Origin: Escherichia coli
GTDB taxonomy: Bacteria > Pseudomonadota > Gammaproteobacteria > Enterobacterales > Enterobacteriaceae
Assembly: GCF_030013595.1 (NCBI RefSeq)
Contig: NZ_CP122768.1
Reading direction: 5' to 3' (one strand)
DNA: 64,000 nucleotides
This document shows positions 412-33,552 of the stretch, piece after piece. Every line of letters begins with the position of its first letter. Within the stretch, counting starts at the first letter, position 1. The notes beneath the pieces are model-generated. The model was given only the letters and a program-made list of their open reading frames with translations. It had not been told where the DNA came from and made no database searches. Made by a program: the position numbers and the translations under genes.

Positions 412-2358
412 ATGAAAACAAATATAAAAGTATTTACATCGACAGGTGAATTGACCACTCTTGGCCGTGAACTGGGCAAAGGTGGTGAAGGCGCGGTTTA
501 TGATATCGAGGAGTTTGTCGATAGCGTCGCCAAGATTTATCACACGCCGCCACCCGCCTTAAAACAGGACAAACTTGCCTTTATGGCTGCGACAGCTGAC
601 GCGCAGTTGTTGAATTATGTCGCCTGGCCGCAGGCAACGCTTCACGGTGGACGAGGCGGAAAAGTTATCGGTTTTATGATGCCAAAAGTTTCTGGTAAAG
701 AACCGATTCATATGATCTATAGCCCGGCACATCGTCGCCAGAGTTACCCTCATTGTGCGTGGGATTTTCTACTCTATGTTGCGCGCAATATTGCTTCATC
801 TTTTGCTACGGTTCACGAGCACGGGCACGTCGTGGGTGACGTAAACCAGAACAGTTTTATGGTAGGTCGCGACAGCAAAGTGGTACTGATTGATAGCGAC
901 TCCTTTCAGATTAACGCCAATGGCACACTGCATTTATGCGAAGTCGGCGTGTCGCATTTTACGCCGCCAGAGCTACAAACCTTGTCGTCATTTGTCGGCT
1001 TTGAACGCACAGAAAATCACGATAATTTTGGCCTTGCGTTGCTGATTTTTCACGTCTTGTTTGGTGGCCGGCATCCTTATTCTGGTGTGCCGCTTATCTC
1101 TGATGCGGGTAATGCGCTGGAGACGGATATTACCCATTTCCGTTATGCCTACGCGTCAGATAATCAGCGACGTGGTTTAAAACCGCCGCCACGATCGATT
1201 CCGCTATCGATGTTACCGAGTGATGTTGAAGCCATGTTTCAGCAGGCATTCACGGAAAGTGGCGTGGCAACCGGGCGTCCGACGGCTAAAGCGTGGGTAG
1301 CGGCACTTGATTCTCTGCGCCAACAGTTAAAGAAATGTCCCGTTTCGGCAATGCATGTTTATCCCGCTCATTTGACCGACTGCCCGTGGTGTGCGCTGGA
1401 TAATCAAGGCGTTATCTATTTTATTGATCTCGGCGAAGAGGTCATTACCACCAGCGGTGATTTTGTGCTGGCGAAAGTCTGGGCGATGGTGATGGCGTCA
1501 GTAGCACCGCCAGCATTGCAATTGCCATTACCCGATCATTTCCAACCGACTGGCAGGCCGCTTCCTTTAGGCCTGTTACGGCGCGAATACATCATTCTGA
1601 TTGAGATCGCACTGTCAGCGTTATCGCTGTTGCTTTGCGGCCTTCAGGCAGAACCGCGTTATATTATTTTGGTTCCTGTGCTGTCGGCTATCTGGATTAT
1701 TGGCAGTCTGACAAGCAAAGCGTACAAAGCAGAAGTTCAGCAACGCCGTGAGGCATTTAATCGCGCGAAAATGGACTATGACCATTTATTCAGCCAGATC
1801 CAACAGTTGGGCGGGCTGGAAGGTTTTATCGCCAAACGGACGATGCTCGAAAAAATGAAGGACGAAATGCTCGGGTTACCGGAAGAAGAAAAACGTGCTC
1901 TGGCAGCACTTCACGACACCGCAAGGGAACGGCAGAAGCAGAAGTTTCTGGAGGGATTTTTTATTGATGTTGCCTCTATTCCCGGCGTTGGCCCTGCGCG
2001 TAAAGCGGCGTTACGGTCCTTTGGTATTGAAACAGCAGCGGATGTTACCCGTCGTGGGGTTAAGCAAGTGAAAGGGTTTGGTGATCATCTGACCCAGGCA
2101 GTTATCGACTGGAAAGCAAGTTGCGAACGCCGTTTTGTGTTCAGGCCGAATGAAGCGGTAACGCCAGCAGACAGACAAGCGGTAATGGCGAAAATGACCG
2201 CCAAACGACATCGGCTGGAATCGACGTTGACTGTCGGCGCGACAGAGTTGCAGCGATTCCGCCTTCATGCTCCAGCACGGACCATGCCGTTGATGGAACC
2301 GTTACGTCAGGCGGCAGAAAAACTGGCTCAGGCGCAGGCAGATTTAAGCCGCTGCTGA
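412..2358 (+). CDS. yegI: Eukaryotic-like Ser/Thr protein kinase family protein with C-terminal membrane/helical region
   Basis: 648 aa ORF; glycine-rich loop GKGGEGAVYD, catalytic-loop-like HGHVVGDVNQNSF, DSDSF (DFG-like); hydrophobic segments around residues 390-440; synteny next to yegD/alkA. Confidence 0.85.
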   Translation: MKTNIKVFTSTGELTTLGRELGKGGEGAVYDIEEFVDSVAKIYHTPPPALKQDKLAFMAATADAQLLNYVAWPQATLHGGRGGKVIGFMMPKVSGKEPIHMIYSPAHRRQSYPHCAWDFLLYVARNIASSFATVHEHGHVVGDVNQNSFMVGRDSKVVLIDSDSFQINANGTLHLCEVGVSHFTPPELQTLSSFVGFERTENHDNFGLALLIFHVLFGGRHPYSGVPLISDAGNALETDITHFRYAYASDNQRRGLKPPPRSIPLSMLPSDVEAMFQQAFTESGVATGRPTAKAWVAALDSLRQQLKKCPVSAMHVYPAHLTDCPWCALDNQGVIYFIDLGEEVITTSGDFVLAKVWAMVMASVAPPALQLPLPDHFQPTGRPLPLGLLRREYIILIEIALSALSLLLCGLQAEPRYIILVPVLSAIWIIGSLTSKAYKAEVQQRREAFNRAKMDYDHLFSQIQQLGGLEGFIAKRTMLEKMKDEMLGLPEEEKRALAALHDTARERQKQKFLEGFFIDVASIPGVGPARKAALRSFGIETAADVTRRGVKQVKGFGDHLTQAVIDWKASCERRFVFRPNEAVTPADRQAVMAKMTAKRHRLESTLTVGATELQRFRLHAPARTMPLMEPLRQAAEKLAQAQADLSRC

Positions 2359-2370
2359 GCCAGTTTTCAA

Positions 2371-3723
2371 TTAACGAAACACCACTTCCGCCCAGCGTGC
2401 CAGCCCGGCGGTGACGGAGCCAAAGTCATCGCCGCCTGCAATCGGAATGCCCGGCAACTGTTCTGCCAGCGCTTTTTTAATCAGCGGCGAACGGGCGCTA
2501 CCGCCGGTCAGGTATATAACGTCCGGTTTTTCCTGGGCGTTATCCAGCGCCAGTTGCACCTGTTCCAGAATTCGCGCAAGCGGCTGGCTGAGGGCGCTTT
2601 CCAGCCCTTGCTGGCTAATCAGCGTAGCCAGTTCATCGCTGATAAACGGCAGTGAGGCGCGAGTTTCCGCAGTGCTGGAAAGAGCAATTTTGCTCTCTTC
2701 TGCGCTGCGTACCAGGCGATAGCTTAAACGCTGACGCCAGACTTTCTGTAACAGGGCCACTTTTTCCGGTTCGCGGGCATCGCGTACCAGATCGTTAAGC
2801 AGACGACCGTTGGCACTACTGTAGAAATCACTCTGCGCAGGAACGTCGTTGATGGCAACCGCATTCCACCACGGCAGAATCGGCAGGGCGATGCCTTTTT
2901 CGGTTTCGCCACCCATGCCCAGTAACGGCATCAGGTTTTTAAACGCCAGCGCGATATCCAGATCGTTACCGCCAATACGGCAACCACTGTGACCCAGCAG
3001 GCTGGCTTCACGATCGAGACGCGAACGCCACTGCGGCCCCATCAGCAGCAATGAACAGTCAGTCGTACCACCGCCGATATCCACCACCAGCACCCGTTTT
3101 TCTTCCTGCAAGGTGGCTTCGTAATCCAGCCCAGCCGCGACCGGCTCGTACTGGAATACCACGTCCCTGAATCCGGCACGCTTCGCCGCGCGTTCCAGAA
3201 TCCCTTGCGCCTGGGCGTTTGCTTCATCGCCGCCAAGCCCCTGGAAGTTGATCGGGCGACCAATCACTGCCTGAGTAATTGCCTCCGGCAGTTGAGCCTG
3301 CGCCTGTTGGCGAATGTGCAACATCATTGCGCAGACCAGATCCTCAAACAGCGCTACCTGCTGCGGTTTTAAGCCGCTGGCACCGAGGAACGATTTTGGT
3401 GATTTCACAAACCACACTTCTTCTGGATCATCAATGTACTGTGCCAGTGAGGAAAGACCGAACTGCACGCTTTTCGCCGTAACATCGATATCTTCTTCGC
3501 GGTTATAACGAATCGCCCGACGCAACAGCGCCTGCGTTTCATCGTCGTCTGCCGGAACATCATGATGGCGGTACAGCCATTCGCTTACCGCTTCACGCGT
3601 TGGCGCGCAAAGCATTGAAGGCAGCAGCGTGCTGTCGTTTTCCATTTTTAGCAAGTGCGGTTTACCGTCACGCATGACCGCCACTGAACAGTTTGCTGTA
3701 CCGTAATCAAAACCAATAAACAC
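2371..3723 (-). CDS. yegD: Hsp70/actin-like ATPase family protein
   Basis: ORF-track 471 aa ORF trimmed to the GTG giving VFIGFDYGTANCSVAV... (450 aa); DnaK-like phosphate-1 motif (IGFDYGT), DIGGGTTD motif present; convergent with yegI, stop codons 12 bp apart. Confidence 0.85.
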   Translation of the reverse strand: MFIGFDYGTANCSVAVMRDGKPHLLKMENDSTLLPSMLCAPTREAVSEWLYRHHDVPADDDETQALLRRAIRYNREEDIDVTAKSVQFGLSSLAQYIDDPEEVWFVKSPKSFLGASGLKPQQVALFEDLVCAMMLHIRQQAQAQLPEAITQAVIGRPINFQGLGGDEANAQAQGILERAAKRAGFRDVVFQYEPVAAGLDYEATLQEEKRVLVVDIGGGTTDCSLLLMGPQWRSRLDREASLLGHSGCRIGGNDLDIALAFKNLMPLLGMGGETEKGIALPILPWWNAVAINDVPAQSDFYSSANGRLLNDLVRDAREPEKVALLQKVWRQRLSYRLVRSAEESKIALSSTAETRASLPFISDELATLISQQGLESALSQPLARILEQVQLALDNAQEKPDVIYLTGGSARSPLIKKALAEQLPGIPIAGGDDFGSVTAGLARWAEVVFR

Positions 3724-4822: not shown

Positions 4823-7800
4823 TCAGTTAATCGCGAAATAACTACTATTCACCAGCAAATCCAGCGGTTGGGCATCGGCAATCACATCACCATAAATCAG
4901 ATCGACGCCGATGCCCGAAAGCGTATCCATCACTAAGGGTAAAACGACTGGCCCGGCTATAGTCTTCACCCCGAGTCGCTGAGCGTGCCCCAGAATAATC
5001 GTAATCAGCATCTCATCCATCAAATTACCCTGCACGTTGGCGCATAAATCCCCATCAAGTAGCAGGTAATCTGCCATATTCGCTTTCAGCGAGTTGAAGA
5101 TTTGCAGATCGCGGCCCACCTGGCTGAGCACTATCCGACATCCCGCCAGCCGCAGTTTTTGCACGCTTTCTGCGTGATCTAAAATCGCTTCTGCCGGAAT
5201 AACCAGATGTAATAACCGTGGTGGTAGAGGGCTATTTTCCATCTGCTCAAGCAGGTCATTCACCAGCGTGGCGCTACTCAAACCGGCAACGGAAAGGGGG
5301 AGGGCGATGCTTATGCCTTTACTGGCAACCGCTTTGGCAGCCTGCTGGAAAAATTCGTGGAATACCCGTCGGTCAAGAGCATGGCTAAGTGCCGGATCGC
5401 TGCAGCTACGACGAAATGTTTGTTCATCAATAATCTCGCCTTCGCAACTCCACAGCTTAAGTGAAATCAGCCACAAATTACGCGCTTCCGGGATCCGTGG
5501 CGAAGCGACACCGTGGGCGATCATCATCAACTGATTCTCTTTAATCATCCGCCACTGTTCATCAAGCGACATCGCCGCCTGTTCGCTATGTGCGGCAGCT
5601 TGCTGCGGTTCGTAAATCGTCACCCGGCCCCGGCCACCATTTTTGGAGGCATAACAGGCGATATCAGCCTGCGACATCACTTCAGCCGCCTGATGATTGT
5701 TGTCATCAATCAAGGTAATCCCGGCACTGGCACCTACCCGATGTACACGTCCTTCCCAGATAAAGTGATAGTCATTCACAGCACTGATAATACGTGTAGC
5801 GATAAAACGCGCACTTTCGACATTGCAGTCTGGCAGCAGCAGACCAAATTCATCACCGCCGAGCCGCGCCAGCACGTCGCTGGAGCGCAGCATGCTCAGC
5901 ATCAACGACGCCAGTTCGCGCAGTAAAGCGTCGCCCGCCGCATGCCCGGCGCTGTCATTCACCGCTTTAAAGCGATCAAGATCGATAAACACCAGGGCAT
6001 GTCGCTGATGCGTACTGTTTACCGTTTGCAGCAGGATGCGTAGTTGCTTCTCAAAACTGGCGCGATTGGCGAGATGCGTCAGTGCATCATGGGAGGCGCT
6101 GTAGCTCAGCTGGCGCAGCATTTTGCGTGATTCGGTGACGTCCTGAATCACCAGAACCGAACCAATATTGCTGCCGTCCAGAGTACTTAACGGCGTAATA
6201 CTGTAATGCACGTCGTAGCTGCCGCCGCTCCGGCAGTGCAACACCACATCTTGTTCAATCGCGGAACGTGAGGTGTCGGCACTGTAAATGTTTTCCATTA
6301 ATGGTCCGTTGTCGCCAAAAGTAATATGCAACACCGTCAGGAGCGGAACACCTAATGCTTCTTCCTGCGTCCAGCCGCTCATCTTCTCCGCCACTGGATT
6401 CATAAAGGTAATTTTCATTGCCATATCAATACAGACCACGGCTTCGCCGATGGAGTCCAGCGTAATGTGCAGGCGCTCTTTTTCCTGAAACAATGCCTCG
6501 TTAAGCTGTTTAACCTCGGTCATATCCATATTAATGCCGAGCAGGCGTTCGACTTCGCCTTCTTTATTCAGTACCCGGTTGGCGAGGGCGCGGATATGGC
6601 GGATGCCATCTTTCACGGCAATGCGAAATTCCAGCTTAAAGGGCGAGCGTGATTGCAACGAATCACGAATCACTTTTTCGGCATGCTGGCGATCTTCCGG
6701 CAGCACGCACTCGTACCACACCTGCCAGTTCGGTTTGATATGCGGAGGAATTTCATACAGCTCGAACATCCGCTTATCCCAGCTAAAAATATTCGGCTTC
6801 AGCTCCCACTCCCAGATGCCAATCCCGCCCGCTTCGTTAGCCAGCGTGATGCGTTCCATCAGTTGCTGATTCACCTGTTCGGTGCGTTTTAGCTCGTTAA
6901 TGTCTTCAATCTGAGCGATAAAATAGAGCGGCGTGCCATCCGTGTGGCGCACCAGTGAGACGGCAAGCAACGCCCAGACAACATCGCCATTGCGGTTGTA
7001 GTAACGTTTTTCCATTGAATAGGTGTTTATTTCACCGCTTATCAGCTTTTCAACCTGTTGGAGATCTTTATTGAGATCCTCCGGCCAGGTCAGTTGCTGA
7101 AAGGTGAGTCCGCGCAGCTCTTCCTGACTGTAACCGAGAAACTGGCAGAGTGCTTTGTTGGATTGCAGCCATTGTCCCTCGGTGCCCACTAATGCCATGC
7201 CGATGGCGGAATATTCCATGGCGTTCCGAAAGCGGGTTTCGCTTTCGGAAATGTGTTTGCGTTCCGCACGAAAGGCATACATCACCATGGTCATGATGTT
7301 GGCGGGCAGCAGGATCAGCAAAAACGGTAGCCACGGCATATGGCTCGTCAGGTACGTACGCGGCGTAGCAAGCAGGGAGGGATCCGCGGCCATCATCAGC
7401 GACACCATCATTACCGTGGTAAGGAAGATCAAAAAGGCTTCCATTCGTGGCAGGCGCACGGCGCTCCACATCAACAGCACAATAATGAAAGTAAAAGGCC
7501 ACGGCAGATACAGCATCGAAAGCCAGCTTAACGTCAGTGTGATGGCTAACGTGAGCAGCGACTCAAAAAGCAACCGTGGGTTGCGATGGCGCAGCAGATA
7601 GTGTGGTTTAAATAACAATCCCAGCGGCACCAGTGCCAGAGCGCCGATGGATTCTGACAGTACCCATATCAAAAATGCCCTGAGAGGATCGTCTCCGGGC
7701 GTCAGCAGGACAACCAGAACACCCCCCAACAGAGGTGGAACAATGGCGCTGCCGAGTGCCAGACGCAGCCAGTCAGCCAGATTTTGCAAGGGGTTATACC

Positions 7801-9793: not shown

Positions 9794-11647
9794 ATGAGAC
9801 GATTTCTGACGACGCTGATGATACTCCTGGTCGTGCTGGTGGCCGGGTTATCTGCGTTAGTGTTGCTGGTGAATCCGAATGATTTCCGCGACTATATGGT
9901 CAAGCAAGTTGCTGCACGTAGCGGTTATCAATTGCAGCTCGACGGGCCACTGCGTTGGCACGTCTGGCCGCAGCTTAGTATCCTCTCCGGGCGAATGTCT
10001 CTCACCGCCCAGGGCGCAAGCCAGCCACTGGTTCGCGCCGACAACATGCGTCTGGACGTGGCGCTTTTACCACTACTGAGTCATCAACTGAGCGTTAAGC
10101 AGGTGATGCTAAAAGGGGCAGTGATCCAACTGACGCCGCAGACGGAAGCGGTGCGCAGTGAAGACGCTCCGGTTGCACCGCGCGACAATACCTTGCCGGA
10201 TCTGTCAGACGATCGCGGATGGTCGTTTGATATATCCAGTCTTAAGGTGGCGGACAGCGTGCTGGTGTTCCAGCATGAAGATGACGAGCAGGTGACAATC
10301 CGCAATATTCGCCTGCAAATGGAACAAGATCCCCAACATCGTGGTTCATTTGAGTTCTCCGGGCGGGTTAATCGCGATCAGCGCGATCTCACGATATCCC
10401 TTAACGGTACGGTAGATGCTTCTGATTATCCGCATGATTTAACGGCGGCTATTGAACAAATTAACTGGCAGTTGCAGGGTGCCGATTTACCAAAACAAGG
10501 TATTCAGGGGCAGGGGAGTTTCCAGGCCCAGTGGCAGGAGTCACATAAACGCCTTTCATTTAACCAAATTAGTTTGACCGCCAATGATAGTACGCTAAGC
10601 GGGCAAGCACAGGTTACGCTGACAGAGAAACCGGAATGGCAGCTGAGGCTGCAATTCCCGCAACTGAATCTTGACAACCTCATCCCGCTTAATGAAACCG
10701 CGAATGGTGAAAACGGTGCCGCGCAGCAGGGGCAGAGCCAATCAACGTTGCCGCGCCCGGTCATTTCTTCGCGTATTGATGAACCGGCCTATCAGGGACT
10801 GCAAGGCTTTACGGCTGATATTTTGTTGCAGGCCAGTAACGTGCGCTGGCGCGGAATGAATTTTACAGATGTTGCCACGCAAATGACCAACAAGTCGGGT
10901 TTGCTGGAAATTACTCAACTGCAGGGCAAACTTAACGGTGGACAGGTTTCACTGCCGGGCACGCTGGACGCGACATCAATAAATCCGCGGATAAACTTCC
11001 AGCCACGGCTGGAAAACGTTGAGATTGGTACCATTCTGAAGGCGTTTAACTATCCGATTTCGTTGACCGGAAAAATGTCACTGGCTGGTGATTTCTCCGG
11101 TGCTGACATAGATGCCGACGCATTCCGCCACAACTGGCAAGGACAGGCACATGTCGAAATGACCGACACGCGCATGGAAGGGATGAACTTCCAGCAGATG
11201 ATTCAGCAAGCGGTAGAGCGTAATGGCGGTGATGTGAAGGCCGCTGAAAACTTTGATAACGTGACGCGGCTTGACCGCTTTACCACCGATTTGACGTTGA
11301 AGGATGGCGTCGTGACGTTAAACGACATGCAAGGTCAATCGCCTGTGCTGGCGCTGACAGGGGAAGGCATGTTGAATCTGGCAGATCAAACCTGCGACAC
11401 CCAGTTTGATATTCGGGTCGTGGGTGGCTGGAACGGGGAAAGCAAACTGATTGATTTCCTGAAAGAAACGCCAGTACCGCTGCGGGTTTATGGCAACTGG
11501 CAGCAACTCAATTACAGCCTGCAAGTGGATCAGTTACTGCGCAAACATCTACAGGACGAAGCGAAACGTCGCCTGAATGACTGGGCCGAGCGGAATAAAG
11601 ATTCCCGTAATGGCAAAGATGTGAAGAAGTTGCTTGAGAAGATGTAG
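9794..11647 (+). CDS. asmA: Outer-membrane-protein assembly factor AsmA
   Basis: 617 aa ORF with N-terminal membrane anchor MRRFLTTLMILLVVLVAGLSALVLLV; synteny dcd-asmA. Confidence 0.9.
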   Translation: MRRFLTTLMILLVVLVAGLSALVLLVNPNDFRDYMVKQVAARSGYQLQLDGPLRWHVWPQLSILSGRMSLTAQGASQPLVRADNMRLDVALLPLLSHQLSVKQVMLKGAVIQLTPQTEAVRSEDAPVAPRDNTLPDLSDDRGWSFDISSLKVADSVLVFQHEDDEQVTIRNIRLQMEQDPQHRGSFEFSGRVNRDQRDLTISLNGTVDASDYPHDLTAAIEQINWQLQGADLPKQGIQGQGSFQAQWQESHKRLSFNQISLTANDSTLSGQAQVTLTEKPEWQLRLQFPQLNLDNLIPLNETANGENGAAQQGQSQSTLPRPVISSRIDEPAYQGLQGFTADILLQASNVRWRGMNFTDVATQMTNKSGLLEITQLQGKLNGGQVSLPGTLDATSINPRINFQPRLENVEIGTILKAFNYPISLTGKMSLAGDFSGADIDADAFRHNWQGQAHVEMTDTRMEGMNFQQMIQQAVERNGGDVKAAENFDNVTRLDRFTTDLTLKDGVVTLNDMQGQSPVLALTGEGMLNLADQTCDTQFDIRVVGGWNGESKLIDFLKETPVPLRVYGNWQQLNYSLQVDQLLRKHLQDEAKRRLNDWAERNKDSRNGKDVKKLLEKM

Positions 11648-11667
11648 GTTACCAGGTGACCAGTCCT

Positions 11668-11704
11668 GTAGGCCTGATAAGACGCGTAAAGCGTCGCATC
11701 AGGC
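11668..11704. repeat. REP element downstream of asmA
   Basis: gtaggcctgataagacgcgtaaagcgtcgcatcaggc, same palindromic unit as at 4771 and in the BIME arrays. Confidence 0.8.
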
Positions 11705-11939
11705 GTTCGTGGCGGCATCATTATATTCTGAATATGTAAGATCGAAGGCTGTTCCGTTCACTTGATGTTCCTCGTTACTATGGAACGCTCAAGCCGGTGA
11801 ACGTGCCAGGGTGGCTCAATCGCCACCACCCTGGCAACCCGGGCCCACACCCCCGCTGTGATGTCCATGTACCACAGACAACGCTTCATTGCTGAAGTTA
11901 TAAGGCGTTACGCAGCATCGGGTAAAATGACCGATACCA

Positions 11940-13523
11940 TCACACCTCGTACTCCATCTCGCCATCCTTACGCAGCGGTATAATCTGCACCTTCTGCACG
12001 CGATGGCTTTCTACCTGCAACGTTTTAAGCAAATAATCCCCCACCTGAACTTCTTCGCCAGGTTTTGGAATACGCTGCAAATACTCCATCAACAGCCCGG
12101 CAATGGTGTGATATTCACGTTTTTCATCCAGCGGCAGCGGCACATATTGCACCAGATCCTCCAGCGGCATATGACCATTCGCCGTCCAGGAACCGTCCGC
12201 ATTCTTCTGAATATCATGGCGGGCGTCGATCTCTTCCACTTCGTTCGGTAAGTTACCGGCAATGGTTTCAGTGACGTCACTTAATGTCACAATCCCTTCC
12301 ACCGAGCCAAACTCATCCACCACAAAAGCAAAGTGCGTGCGGGCATTACGGAACTGCTCCAGGGCAGGTAACAACGGCAAGGTTTCCGGGAACACCAGCG
12401 GCTGGCGAATCAACACCCGCAGGTTGAGCGGTTCGCCGCGCAGAGACTGTTGTAGCAGGTCGATAACGTGAACAACACCGAGCAAATCTTCTGCGTCATC
12501 ACCGTCGGTAACCACCAGCCGCGTATGCTGATTTCGCTCCAGCAACTGGTGGATCTCGTCTTCCGGCGCGTTGAGATCGATATGCTCAATATCGTGGCGC
12601 GACGTCATAATGCTGCTGACGGTACGCTGGTTAAGATTTAGTACCCGCTCAATCATCCGCCGTTCCTGCGGATTAAAGATCTGCTGGTTACCATGATCCA
12701 CCAGCATGGACGCGGTTTCGGCGTCCAGTTCCGCATCTTCTTTTTGCCCGCTAAGCAGGCGCATTACCGCTTCGGTAGTCCGCTGGCGCAGCGTCTGGTT
12801 AGCGGAAAGAAAACGTCGCCGGTTAAAGATAGCCAACTGATTGAGCGCCTCGATCATCACCGAGAAACCAATGGCAGCGTACAGGTAGCCTTTCGGAATG
12901 ACGAAGCCGAAACCTTCTGCCACCAGGCTAAAGCCAATCATCAACAGGAAGCTTAAGCAGAGAATAACGATCGTCGGGTGACTGTTAACAAATTGCGTTA
13001 ACGGCTTGCTGGCCATCAACATCAGGCTGATAGCGATAACCACGGCGGCCATCATGACCAGTAAATGGTCGACCATCCCGACGGCGGTAATCACTGAGTC
13101 GAGTGAGAAAATGGCGTCCAGTACCACAATTTGCGTCACCACGCCCCAGAACTTCGCACCTTTGCGTTGTGTGGGATTATTGCTGTCTTTCCCTTCCAGC
13201 CGTTCGTTCAGCTCCATCGTGGCTTTGAACAACAGGAAGAAACCACCAAACAGCATGATTAAGTCGCGGGCACTAAAGGTAAACGAGCGGAAGCTGAACA
13301 GCGGTTGAGTCAGGGTGACCAGCCAGGAGATTGACGCCAGCAGTAACAGGCGCATTAACATTGCCAGCAGCAGCCCGGTAACCCGTGCGCGGTCACGCTG
13401 CTTCGGCGGTAGTTTTTCGGCGAGGATGGCAATAAAGACCAGGTTATCAATGCCGAGGACCAGTTCGATCACAATCAGCGTGATTAACCCGGCCCAGATA
13501 GACGGATCGGCAATCCATTCCAT
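11940..13523 (-). CDS. yegH: TerC-family membrane protein with CBS and CorC/HlyC transporter-associated domains
   Basis: ORF-track 549 aa trimmed to [34 protein letters not shown] (527 aa); TerC-like N-terminus, CBS-pair region. Confidence 0.85.
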
Positions 13524-28380: not shown

Positions 28381-28660
<280 letters not shown>

Positions 28661-33046: not shown

Positions 33047-33074
33047 GTTGTTGTTTTCGGTTCCGACAACGGTT

Positions 33075-33552
33075 GCCGGGTGCAGCGTAAAACGCCTTAT
33101 CCATCCTACGGTTCTGTGCTCGGGACCTGTAGGCCTGATAAGACGCGTCAGCGTCGCATCAGGCACTGAATGCCGGATGCGGCGTGAACGCCTTATCCGG
33201 CCTACGGTTCAGGGCTTGGATCTTGTAGGCCCGATAAGACGCGCCAGCGTCGCATCAGGCACTGAATGCCGGATGCGGCGTAAAACGCCTTATCCGGCCT
33301 ACGGTTCTGTGCTCGGGTCTTGTAGGCCTGATAAGACGCGCCAGCGTCGCATCAGGCACTGAATGCCGGATGCGGCGTGAACGCCTTATCCATCCTACGG
33401 TTCTGTGCTCGGGACCTGTAGGCCTGATAAGACGCGTCAGCGTCGCATCAGGCACTGAATGCCGGATGCGGCGTGAACGCCTTATCCGGCCTACGGTTCT
33501 GTGCTCGGGTCTTGTAGGCCTGATAAGACGCGGCCAGCGTCGCATCAGGCAA
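33075..33552. repeat. BIME array: about five tandem REP-pair units (~86-106 bp period)
   Basis: cgtcgcatcaggcactgaatgccggatgcggcg recurs at ~33153, 33259, 33345, 33440, 33540; overlapping ORF-track ORFs in both strands are artefacts. Confidence 0.9.

Follow-up and report, generated by a model that had tools for sequence, protein, structure and literature searches.

The GC-rich hairpin between asmA and yegH of Escherichia coli: very probably a module of a core-deleted TRIP1/RRS repeat

Introduction

The genes asmA (plus strand, stop at 11647) and yegH (minus strand, stop codon at 11940-11942), the latter encoding a TerC-family protein, converge in the 64-kb stretch of Escherichia coli DNA analysed here (the window, to which all plain coordinates refer). 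The gap between them raises a simple question: what is the GC-rich inverted repeat that it contains, and what may this repeat do? An initial annotation had described a 9-bp perfect stem followed by a C-rich tract in a gap of about 290 bp; it had proposed a bidirectional Rho-independent-like terminator or else a structured small RNA or protein-binding site, and had named no described feature at this place.

Two sets of published elements bear on the answer. TRIP1 repeats of E. coli reportedly go back to Rudd in 1999. Full-length TRIP1 copies span 264-273 bp and have a "double-Y" fold, and the elements called RRS span 222 bp. TRIP1 was later treated by Li et al. 2024 (PMC10888264), with five loci, namely a (aqpZ-ybjE), b (putP-ycdN), c (yohI-yohG), d (alx-sstT) and e (copA-ybaP); TRIP1b of K-12, with 146 bp, is a partial form of TRIP1a minus an internal 125 bp (PMC10888264). 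RRS stands for the replication risk sequences of Pham et al. 2023 and 2024 (PMC10287960, PMC11194060). RRS-lysO and RRS-dusC, GC-rich elements of 222 bp, lie 650 kb either side of dif; RRS give rise to lagging-strand post-replication gaps, are conditionally essential and affect supercoiling, and Pol I, II and IV are blocked in vitro at their G-quadruplex site (PMC10287960, PMC11194060).

Results

The inverted repeat in the asmA-yegH gap

The features of the gap are the following; modules are numbered as in the family fold described below.

11804-11836, minus strand: GC-rich hairpin, a perfect 11-nt inverted repeat (very probably module 2 of a TRIP1/RRS-family element, G-rich strand)
11755-11803, minus strand: module 3 helix, CGTTCAC (11755-11761) with GTGAACG (11797-11803), predicted in both strand folds
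11767-11771 with 11782-11786, minus strand: inner stem of module 3 (GTTCC/GGAAC), predicted by folding and enclosed by the CGTTCAC/GTGAACG helix
11829-11854, minus strand: G-run tract GGGGGTGTGGGCCCGGGTTGCCAGGG, the complement of the plus-strand C-rich tract of the initial annotation, overlapping one hairpin arm
11856-11877, minus strand: small hairpin CUGUGGU-ACAUGGAC-AUCACAG on the 5' side of the element on the G strand, with a 7-bp stem in the fold of the intact allele
11672-11704, no strand assigned: REP element, an inverted repeat that is not part of the hairpin repeat
11844/11845, no strand assigned: deletion junction, 8 nt from the stem, from BLAST and alignments A1 and A5

The gap between the two stop codons measures 292 bp, in agreement with the earlier estimate. 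The arms of the repeat, at 11804-11814 (TGCCAGGGTGG) and 11826-11836 (CCACCCTGGCA), are 11 nt each, 100% complementary and separated by an 11-nt loop, and on the minus strand a twelfth pair, G.U, is possible; the stem is perfect as described, with 11 bp and not 9. The hairpin lies 156 nt past the asmA stop and 103 nt past the yegH stop, and by folding energy the minus strand reached -24.4 kcal/mol (z = -2.6) and the plus strand -22.0 kcal/mol (z = -3.9). Four loci in the window have perfectly matched inverted repeats of 11 bp or more with arms 3-20 nt apart, against a mean of 0.43 in dinucleotide shuffles, which speaks against a chance origin; the other three are at 7224-7250, 50788-50823 and 60409-60441. 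As had been noted, the plus-strand tract that follows the stem, caacccgggcccacaccccc, is rich in C and lacks a T run; beyond the stem the plus strand reads CAACCCGGG and the minus strand CACGTTCAC. A consensus scan of 11400-12200 on both strands found neither terminators nor promoters.

The separation of the hairpin from the REP element was borne out by an Rfam scan of the gap, in which a sub-threshold naRNA4 (RF02564) match covered 11671-11743, that is the REP element, and none fell on the hairpin. Like REP/BIME sequences, the hairpin belongs to GC-rich palindromic intergenic repeats found at gene 3' ends, and one REP lies 100 nt away in the same gap; unlike them, it has no sequence similarity to REP and is part of a composite of roughly 300 bp with few copies per genome. 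REP-like BLAST matches elsewhere in the window derive from positions 1516-1558 of the intact allele (L002, see below) and not from the hairpin. The same Rfam scan gave a RAGATH-5 match of 17 bits (E = 2.8), which was attributed to chance. Two short ORFs over the hairpin (43 aa, 11758-11889; 49 aa, 11816-11965) were also set aside, as they span the deletion junction in a region with non-triplet indels among copies.

On the G strand, the small hairpin at 11856-11877 directly adjoins the 5' side of the deleted core. One of its pairs is G.U on the minus strand and would turn into an A.C mismatch if the plus strand folded. Its loop contains AUGGAC, of the AYGGAY type, and would be a third AYGGAY-type loop, specific to the asmA-yegH copy.

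The hairpin very probably belongs to the TRIP1/RRS repeat family

BLAST of the intact gap (L002) against E. coli genomes gave a median of 3 matching places per genome (range 1-10) in 5,425 out of 5,426 genomes, and the matches that were fetched lay at aqpZ-lysO, putP-efeU, dusC-yohP, alx-sstT and proX-ygaY. Pairwise BLAST put the length of the element at about 265-310 bp and separated two subfamilies, one with the aqpZ, putP, dusC and alx copies and the other with the asmA-yegH and proX copies. L002 aligned to L005-L010 with 77-84% identity over 181-253 nt (E 1e-33 to 1e-52), and the window segment 11750-11844 aligned to the proX-side copy (L006 1158-1252) with 78% identity (E = 1e-15); by BLAST, the window contains only one partial copy of the repeat. 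A core-pattern scan of one genome per species identified 83 loci, nearly all of them in Enterobacteriaceae and up to seven in one genome, in Escherichia, Citrobacter, Enterobacter, Klebsiella, Kluyvera, Pluralibacter, Pseudescherichia, Raoultella and other genera.

The first four fetched loci (aqpZ, putP, dusC and alx) are the published TRIP1a-d loci, and TRIP1a is the same element as RRS-lysO and TRIP1c the same as RRS-dusC. Both the loci and the copy number in K-12 agree with TRIP1. The RSA repeat (150/151 bp, 6 copies in K-12) was considered as another identity and rejected, since TRIP1 fitted both loci and copy number, though RSA may still be a synonym or a relative. The supposed lack of a described feature was therefore correct for the locus and not for the family, which is published as TRIP1 (PMC10888264) and as RRS (PMC11194060, PMC10287960): neither the asmA-yegH nor the proX copy is among the five TRIP1 loci of PMC10888264. 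The search criterion of that study was >80% coverage of TRIP1a, b or c, and the asmA-yegH copy aligns to TRIP1a over about 69% of the TRIP1a length, below that value.

The asmA-yegH copy is an uncatalogued, diverged and, in the window, degenerate member of the TRIP1/RRS family. Its intact allele has the "double-Y" fold and shares the order of stems with TRIP1a-d (alignments A2, A3 and A5), and TRIP1b of K-12, also an internally deleted remnant that has kept the hairpin, is accepted as a member. The copy differs from published members in its stem, CCAGGGTGG at asmA-yegH against GCAGGGGGCGGC, in a location about 90 kb nearer dif than RRS-dusC and, in the window, in lacking P1 and both core hairpins, hence in not being full-length. 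We consider it very probable that the hairpin is the GC module of a core-deleted TRIP1/RRS copy, most likely a relic, and not an intrinsic terminator.

A mobile-element reading was weighed at this point, in which the hairpin would mark the end of a non-autonomous element and serve as the site for a transposase or recombinase acting in trans. The number of matching places per genome, the up to seven core-pattern loci, the presence or absence of copies at given loci and the inversion in place of the dusC copy between strains would agree with mobility. However, no associated transposase gene was seen, there was no phage match, the plasmid matches were chromosome-sized or non-mobilisable records, and the hairpin is internal to the element and not terminal, which makes this reading very improbable. 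At alx-sstT we found no clean empty site or target duplication, K-12 having a different repeat-like sequence there.

Some individual copies deserve mention. K-12 and strain 201609 have TRIP1c/RRS-dusC at the same place in opposite orientations (L009 1147-1408 versus L095 1116-1377): at dusC-yohP the element aligns forward at 89% identity and both flanks align in reverse at 97.5%, which matches the published finding of TRIP1c in both directions. At the dusC locus of E. coli O170:H18 (L011 1305-1539), an IS110-family transposase gene adjoins a truncated TRIP1c copy; the match ends at query position 153, which suggests that the insertion sequence landed in the TRIP1c core. The alx-sstT gap of K-12 (L097 3547-3944) contains another GC-rich repeat-like sequence (GGGAGAGGGTCGGGGTGAGGG ... 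CCCCTCACCCTAACCCTCTCCCC) where other strains have TRIP1d, and similar CCCCCTCACCC-like motifs flank several Enterobacter copies in alignment A3. A RefSeq 100-aa "hypothetical protein" (WP_001441093.1; L008 1092-1394) lies almost wholly inside TRIP1d on the G strand and is probably a spurious gene call.

Compensatory changes preserve the hairpin on the G strand

On its G-rich strand, an intact member of the family is predicted to fold into three modules. Module 1, the TwoAYGGAY-like core, is a long closing stem, P1, around two hairpins with A(Y/G)GGAY loops; module 2 an 11-12-bp GC hairpin overlapping G tracts, which corresponds to the published RRS "G-quadruplex" site; and module 3 a helix, CGTTCAC...GTGAACG, closing a variable region.

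The conservation of the stem through compensatory changes, named as a check by the initial annotation, was followed in alignment A3, which comprises 77 distinct copies in G-strand orientation; these are paralogues and orthologues and not independent samples, so that counts of alignment cells overstate the number of evolutionary events. RNAalifold placed the hairpin at columns 327-362 and the neighbouring helix at columns 364-370 with 410-416. Over the 14 pairs of the two, 97.1% of the cells were standard pairs compared to 83.5% in shuffles (0 of 500 shuffles reached this value), 160 double-sided changes were counted where 49.6 were expected, and slid controls were 34-60% paired. Up to four pair types occur at single positions, an observation unaffected by the kinship of the copies. 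In the hairpin, pair 329:360 is AU in 46 copies, CG in 21, UA in 5 and GC in 1, and pair 333:359 is GC in 40, AU in 27 and GU in 7; in the helix, whose pairs covary between the subfamilies, pair 366:414 is CG in 47 and UA in 26, and pair 369:411 is CG in 41, AU in 26 and UA in 8. The stems can be divergent and yet complementary, as in CCAGGGTGG/CCACCCTGG, GCAGGGGGCGGC/GCCGCCCCCTGC, TTAAGGGGGCT/AGCCCCCTTAA, TCAGGGAGGC/GCCTCCCTGA and ACAGAGGGC/GCCCTCTGT, and the hairpin reaches -15 kcal/mol or better in 75 of the 77 copies. A structure based on the TRIP1a minimum-free-energy fold (86 pairs), applied to the 77 copies, also exceeded its controls, with 88.9% of cells paired in P1, 97.3% in hairpin 1 and 96.7% in hairpin 2; the loops of the core hairpins in intact copies are A(U/G/A)GGAU and A(G/U/C)GGAY.

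The G strand, which is the minus strand of the window and the sense strand of yegH, carries about 42 G.U against about 11 A.C cells (RNAalifold pair table, two doubtful pairs left out), and in the E. coli O45:H2 variant of the asmA-yegH hairpin one pair becomes G.U on the G strand. The excess of G.U over A.C and the O45:H2 change point to the G strand as the one that folds, and together with the compensatory changes they show that selection maintains the hairpin as a single-strand structure formed by the G strand.

These results bear on both functions first proposed for the hairpin. As a bidirectional Rho-independent-like terminator it would end the asmA and yegH transcripts, and it does resemble intrinsic terminators in being a stable GC-rich stem-loop downstream of convergent genes, in a gap without any other terminator-like site. 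It differs from them in its 11-nt loop and in the lack of a T/U run after the stem on either strand; no U tract adjoins the hairpin in any of the 77 copies, the loop and stem variation is typical of a structural module, and the hairpin is a module of a dispersed repeat with differing gene contexts, its G strand being antisense to both neighbours at aqpZ-lysO and putP-efeU. A terminator role is thus extremely improbable. The other proposal, a structured small RNA or protein-binding site, fared better in one respect: the stem is indeed kept by compensatory changes across the 77 copies, as part of a larger structured element. It is, however, a module of the repeat rather than a small RNA in its own right, and in the window the remainder of the structure has been lost by deletion.

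The window allele arose by an internal deletion

We queried the gap by megablast against 5,426 complete E. coli genomes and found three forms.

Long form (e.g. strain CUVET21-424, L002): gap of 450 bp, intact, about 1,425 genomes
K-12 form: gap of 273 bp, 177-bp deletion between ATCGGGTA and ATTGGGTA, the remaining genomes
Window form: gap of 292 bp, 158-bp deletion (L002 1698-1855) between the direct repeats CCGGGC and CCGGAC, 388 genomes

By BLAST, positions 1-1697 of L002 correspond to 10148-11844 of the window and positions 1850-3450 to 11839-13439; the junction in the 388 genomes is identical to that of the window. The missing 158 bp comprise the closing stem P1 together with the two A(Y/G)GGAY hairpins, so that module 1 was lost by a deletion between CCGGGC and CCGGAC at the base of P1. 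What is left, at 11755-11836, is modules 2 and 3, next to the G-run tract. Three further Escherichia genomes among the GTDB species representatives (L029, L053 and L062) also have an intact copy between asmA and yegH, which makes the long form appear ancestral and both short forms derived.

The hairpin has been retained in all three independent deletion remnants, that is K-12 TRIP1b, the K-12 asmA-yegH form and the window form, and in two of the three internal deletions an endpoint lies 0-8 nt from it. Such hairpin-sparing deletions would be expected if a stable hairpin provokes slippage, and equally if selection retains the hairpin.

The core of intact copies resembles the TwoAYGGAY RNA motif

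TwoAYGGAY (RF01731; Weinberg et al. 2010, PMC2864571) is a motif with two AYGGAY terminal loops, an often very long P1 and no known function, collected from gut metagenomes, Clostridia and gamma-proteobacteria (PMC2864571). With the full model, the core of intact TRIP1 copies scored 28.2-36.6 bits on the G strand, the gathering score being 43, and a divergent copy of Pseudocitrobacter faecalis (L035 2218-2281) scored 49.2 bits in a local match over the two hairpins only. This divergent copy stands head-to-head beside a TRIP1 copy and has the same three modules. RF01731 had no match in the window, which also lacks the two AYGGAY hairpins within P1, because the core is deleted there.

The likeness extends to several traits. 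Intact family copies have a long closing stem with two adjacent hairpins and the loops AUGGAU and A(G/U/C)GGAY, they occur in multiple copies without a link to particular genes, and the Psychromonas members of the TwoAYGGAY alignment have the loops ACAUGGAUGU and ACAGGGACGU, like the TRIP1 hairpins. On the other hand, the Rfam model covers neither the GC hairpin nor the CGTTCAC/GTGAACG helix, and TRIP1 copies score below its gathering score. We regard the tie between the TRIP1 core and TwoAYGGAY as a well-supported resemblance and not as proven membership. Among the literature mentioning TwoAYGGAY there was no TRIP1 or RRS paper.

A second, divergent TwoAYGGAY-like element head-to-head with a TRIP1-type copy was seen in several species (L035 2190-2440, L064 2064-2125, L085 635-692, L086 2389-2445 and L066 947-1010).

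The resemblance gives some ground for an RNA element in the yegH 3' UTR, in which the hairpin and helix would block exonucleases or bind a protein in a REP-like manner and the intact copies would be structured RNAs of the TwoAYGGAY type. The G strand is yegH sense, with no terminator between the stop codon and the hairpin, and both the covariation and the excess of G.U over A.C imply that this strand folds; the core matches RF01731 at 28-37 bits, with the one divergent neighbour at 49.2 bits. A rough ORF-based count, to be taken as a hint only, has the G strand co-oriented with the 5'-side gene in 44 of 61 copies, but this bias is confounded with replication direction, since genes tend to be co-oriented with replication. 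Moreover, a search of the literature on the asmA-yegH gap for a small RNA or a feature of the 3' UTR returned nothing relevant and no transcript evidence, no promoter or terminator consensus surrounds the intact TRIP1a copy, G.T pairs stabilise single-stranded DNA folds too, and the core is missing in the window. An RNA function of the window copy is, on balance, unlikely.

G-quadruplex potential and replication orientation

The published RRS G-quadruplex, 5'-GGGGGTGCAGGGGGCGGCGG-3' (PMC11194060), aligns to one arm of the family hairpin plus the adjacent G run; hence the hairpin and C-rich tract first noticed here are the homologue of the RRS G-quadruplex site, read on the complementary strand. 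The published polymerase stops in RRS-lysO and RRS-dusC map to the segment homologous to the hairpin (PMC11194060). The exact sequence GGGGGTGCAGGGGGCGGCGG is absent from the window, and the homologous minus-strand tract GGGGGTGTGGGCCCGGGTTGCCAGGG fits the canonical motif: it is the only match to four G3+ runs with N1-7 spacers in the 64 kb, both strands considered (11829-11854, minus strand), a motif that exists because the deletion joined G runs.

In a G4Hunter-style scoring, the window allele reached 1.32 and the intact asmA-yegH allele 0.96. Fifty of the 77 copies scored at least 1.5 and 23 scored below 1.2, the latter including the asmA-yegH subfamily (0.8-1.1); given these values, a G-quadruplex is not a conserved trait of that subfamily.

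In K-12 coordinates, asmA-yegH lies at 2.1395 Mb, within the left replichore, and its G strand is the plus strand and thus the leading-strand template, an assignment with which the positive GC skew of the window plus strand agrees. This sets the copy apart from the RRS: RRS-dusC, at a distance of 90 kb, has its G strand as the minus strand and the lagging-strand template. According to a 2026 preprint, with the G4 strand as lagging-strand template nearly all passages leave gaps, with the C strand in that role about two thirds of encounters do, and neither strand as leading-strand template leads to efficient gap formation.

We therefore considered whether the window copy could still act as a reduced RRS, its hairpin and G-run tract folding in single-stranded DNA, stalling polymerase and causing local gaps or slippage. 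The published polymerase stops at the hairpin segment, the sole canonical motif in the 64 kb and the deletion endpoints close to the hairpin, as slippage would predict, speak for such activity. It is nevertheless quite unlikely: the G strand is the leading-strand template, an orientation reported as inactive, the published gap-forming unit is the 222-bp element and not the hairpin alone, and the G-quadruplex score is modest at 1.32, those of the subfamily being 0.8-1.1.

Discussion

Published experiments on intact RRS locate both DNA polymerase stalling and the origin of post-replication gaps in the hairpin segment. The window copy would at most form a stable stem-loop in read-through yegH transcripts, which is possible because the stretch from the stop codon to the stem has no terminator, or present replication with a minor obstacle. 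With its core deleted and its G strand serving as leading-strand template, the orientation reported as inactive, it is most likely inert, and we infer that it is a decaying, non-functional relic. Three observations speak against this. All three deletion remnants keep the hairpin, which could mean selection; the deletion created the sole canonical motif of four G3+ runs in 64 kb, which could give some activity; and the C strand belongs here to the lagging-strand template, with the C strand of a full RRS causing gaps in about two thirds of encounters. The copy may accordingly act as a weak replication obstacle through its C strand or its new G4 motif.

For the window, the unexplained hairpin is resolved, with the likelihood given above, as a relic of a described repeat family. 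The interest of the asmA-yegH locus itself is low, and that of the family-level results, namely the second subfamily, the hairpin covariation without a conserved G-quadruplex and the link to TwoAYGGAY, is moderate. The diverged RRS-like subfamily of asmA-yegH and proX-ygaY is reported neither by the published catalogue nor by the published G4 search, with the intact asmA-yegH copy in roughly 1,425 of the 5,426 complete genomes. Compensatory change keeps the hairpin and the multi-stem fold throughout the 77 copies, and high G-quadruplex propensity is limited to one subfamily; conservation of the fold over that of the G-quadruplex bears on the proposed mechanism of gap formation. The likeness to TwoAYGGAY ties an RNA motif without a function since 2010 to a DNA element with an experimental phenotype, and suggests as hypotheses that RRS act via a structured RNA or that TwoAYGGAY motifs act as single-stranded DNA structures.

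A tentative joint reading, which we would not yet favour over its negation, is that TRIP1/RRS represents an enterobacterial branch of TwoAYGGAY, in which selection would act on the three-module fold of the G strand and not on a G-quadruplex, asmA-yegH and proX would form a second, uncatalogued subfamily and the hairpin would provoke slippage. If so, about a quarter of E. coli genomes would contain one more intact element of RRS type, at about 90 kb from RRS-dusC, and the hairpin as a slippage hot spot would explain the repeated internal deletions that spare it.

Minor observations in the window

REP-like arrays with a spacing of about 88-97 bp at 28444-28656 and 33073-33550 match the REP element of the asmA-yegH gap by BLAST. 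The segment 40001-48000 has a G+C content of 0.366, compared to 0.48-0.55 elsewhere in the window, and a strong positive GC skew.
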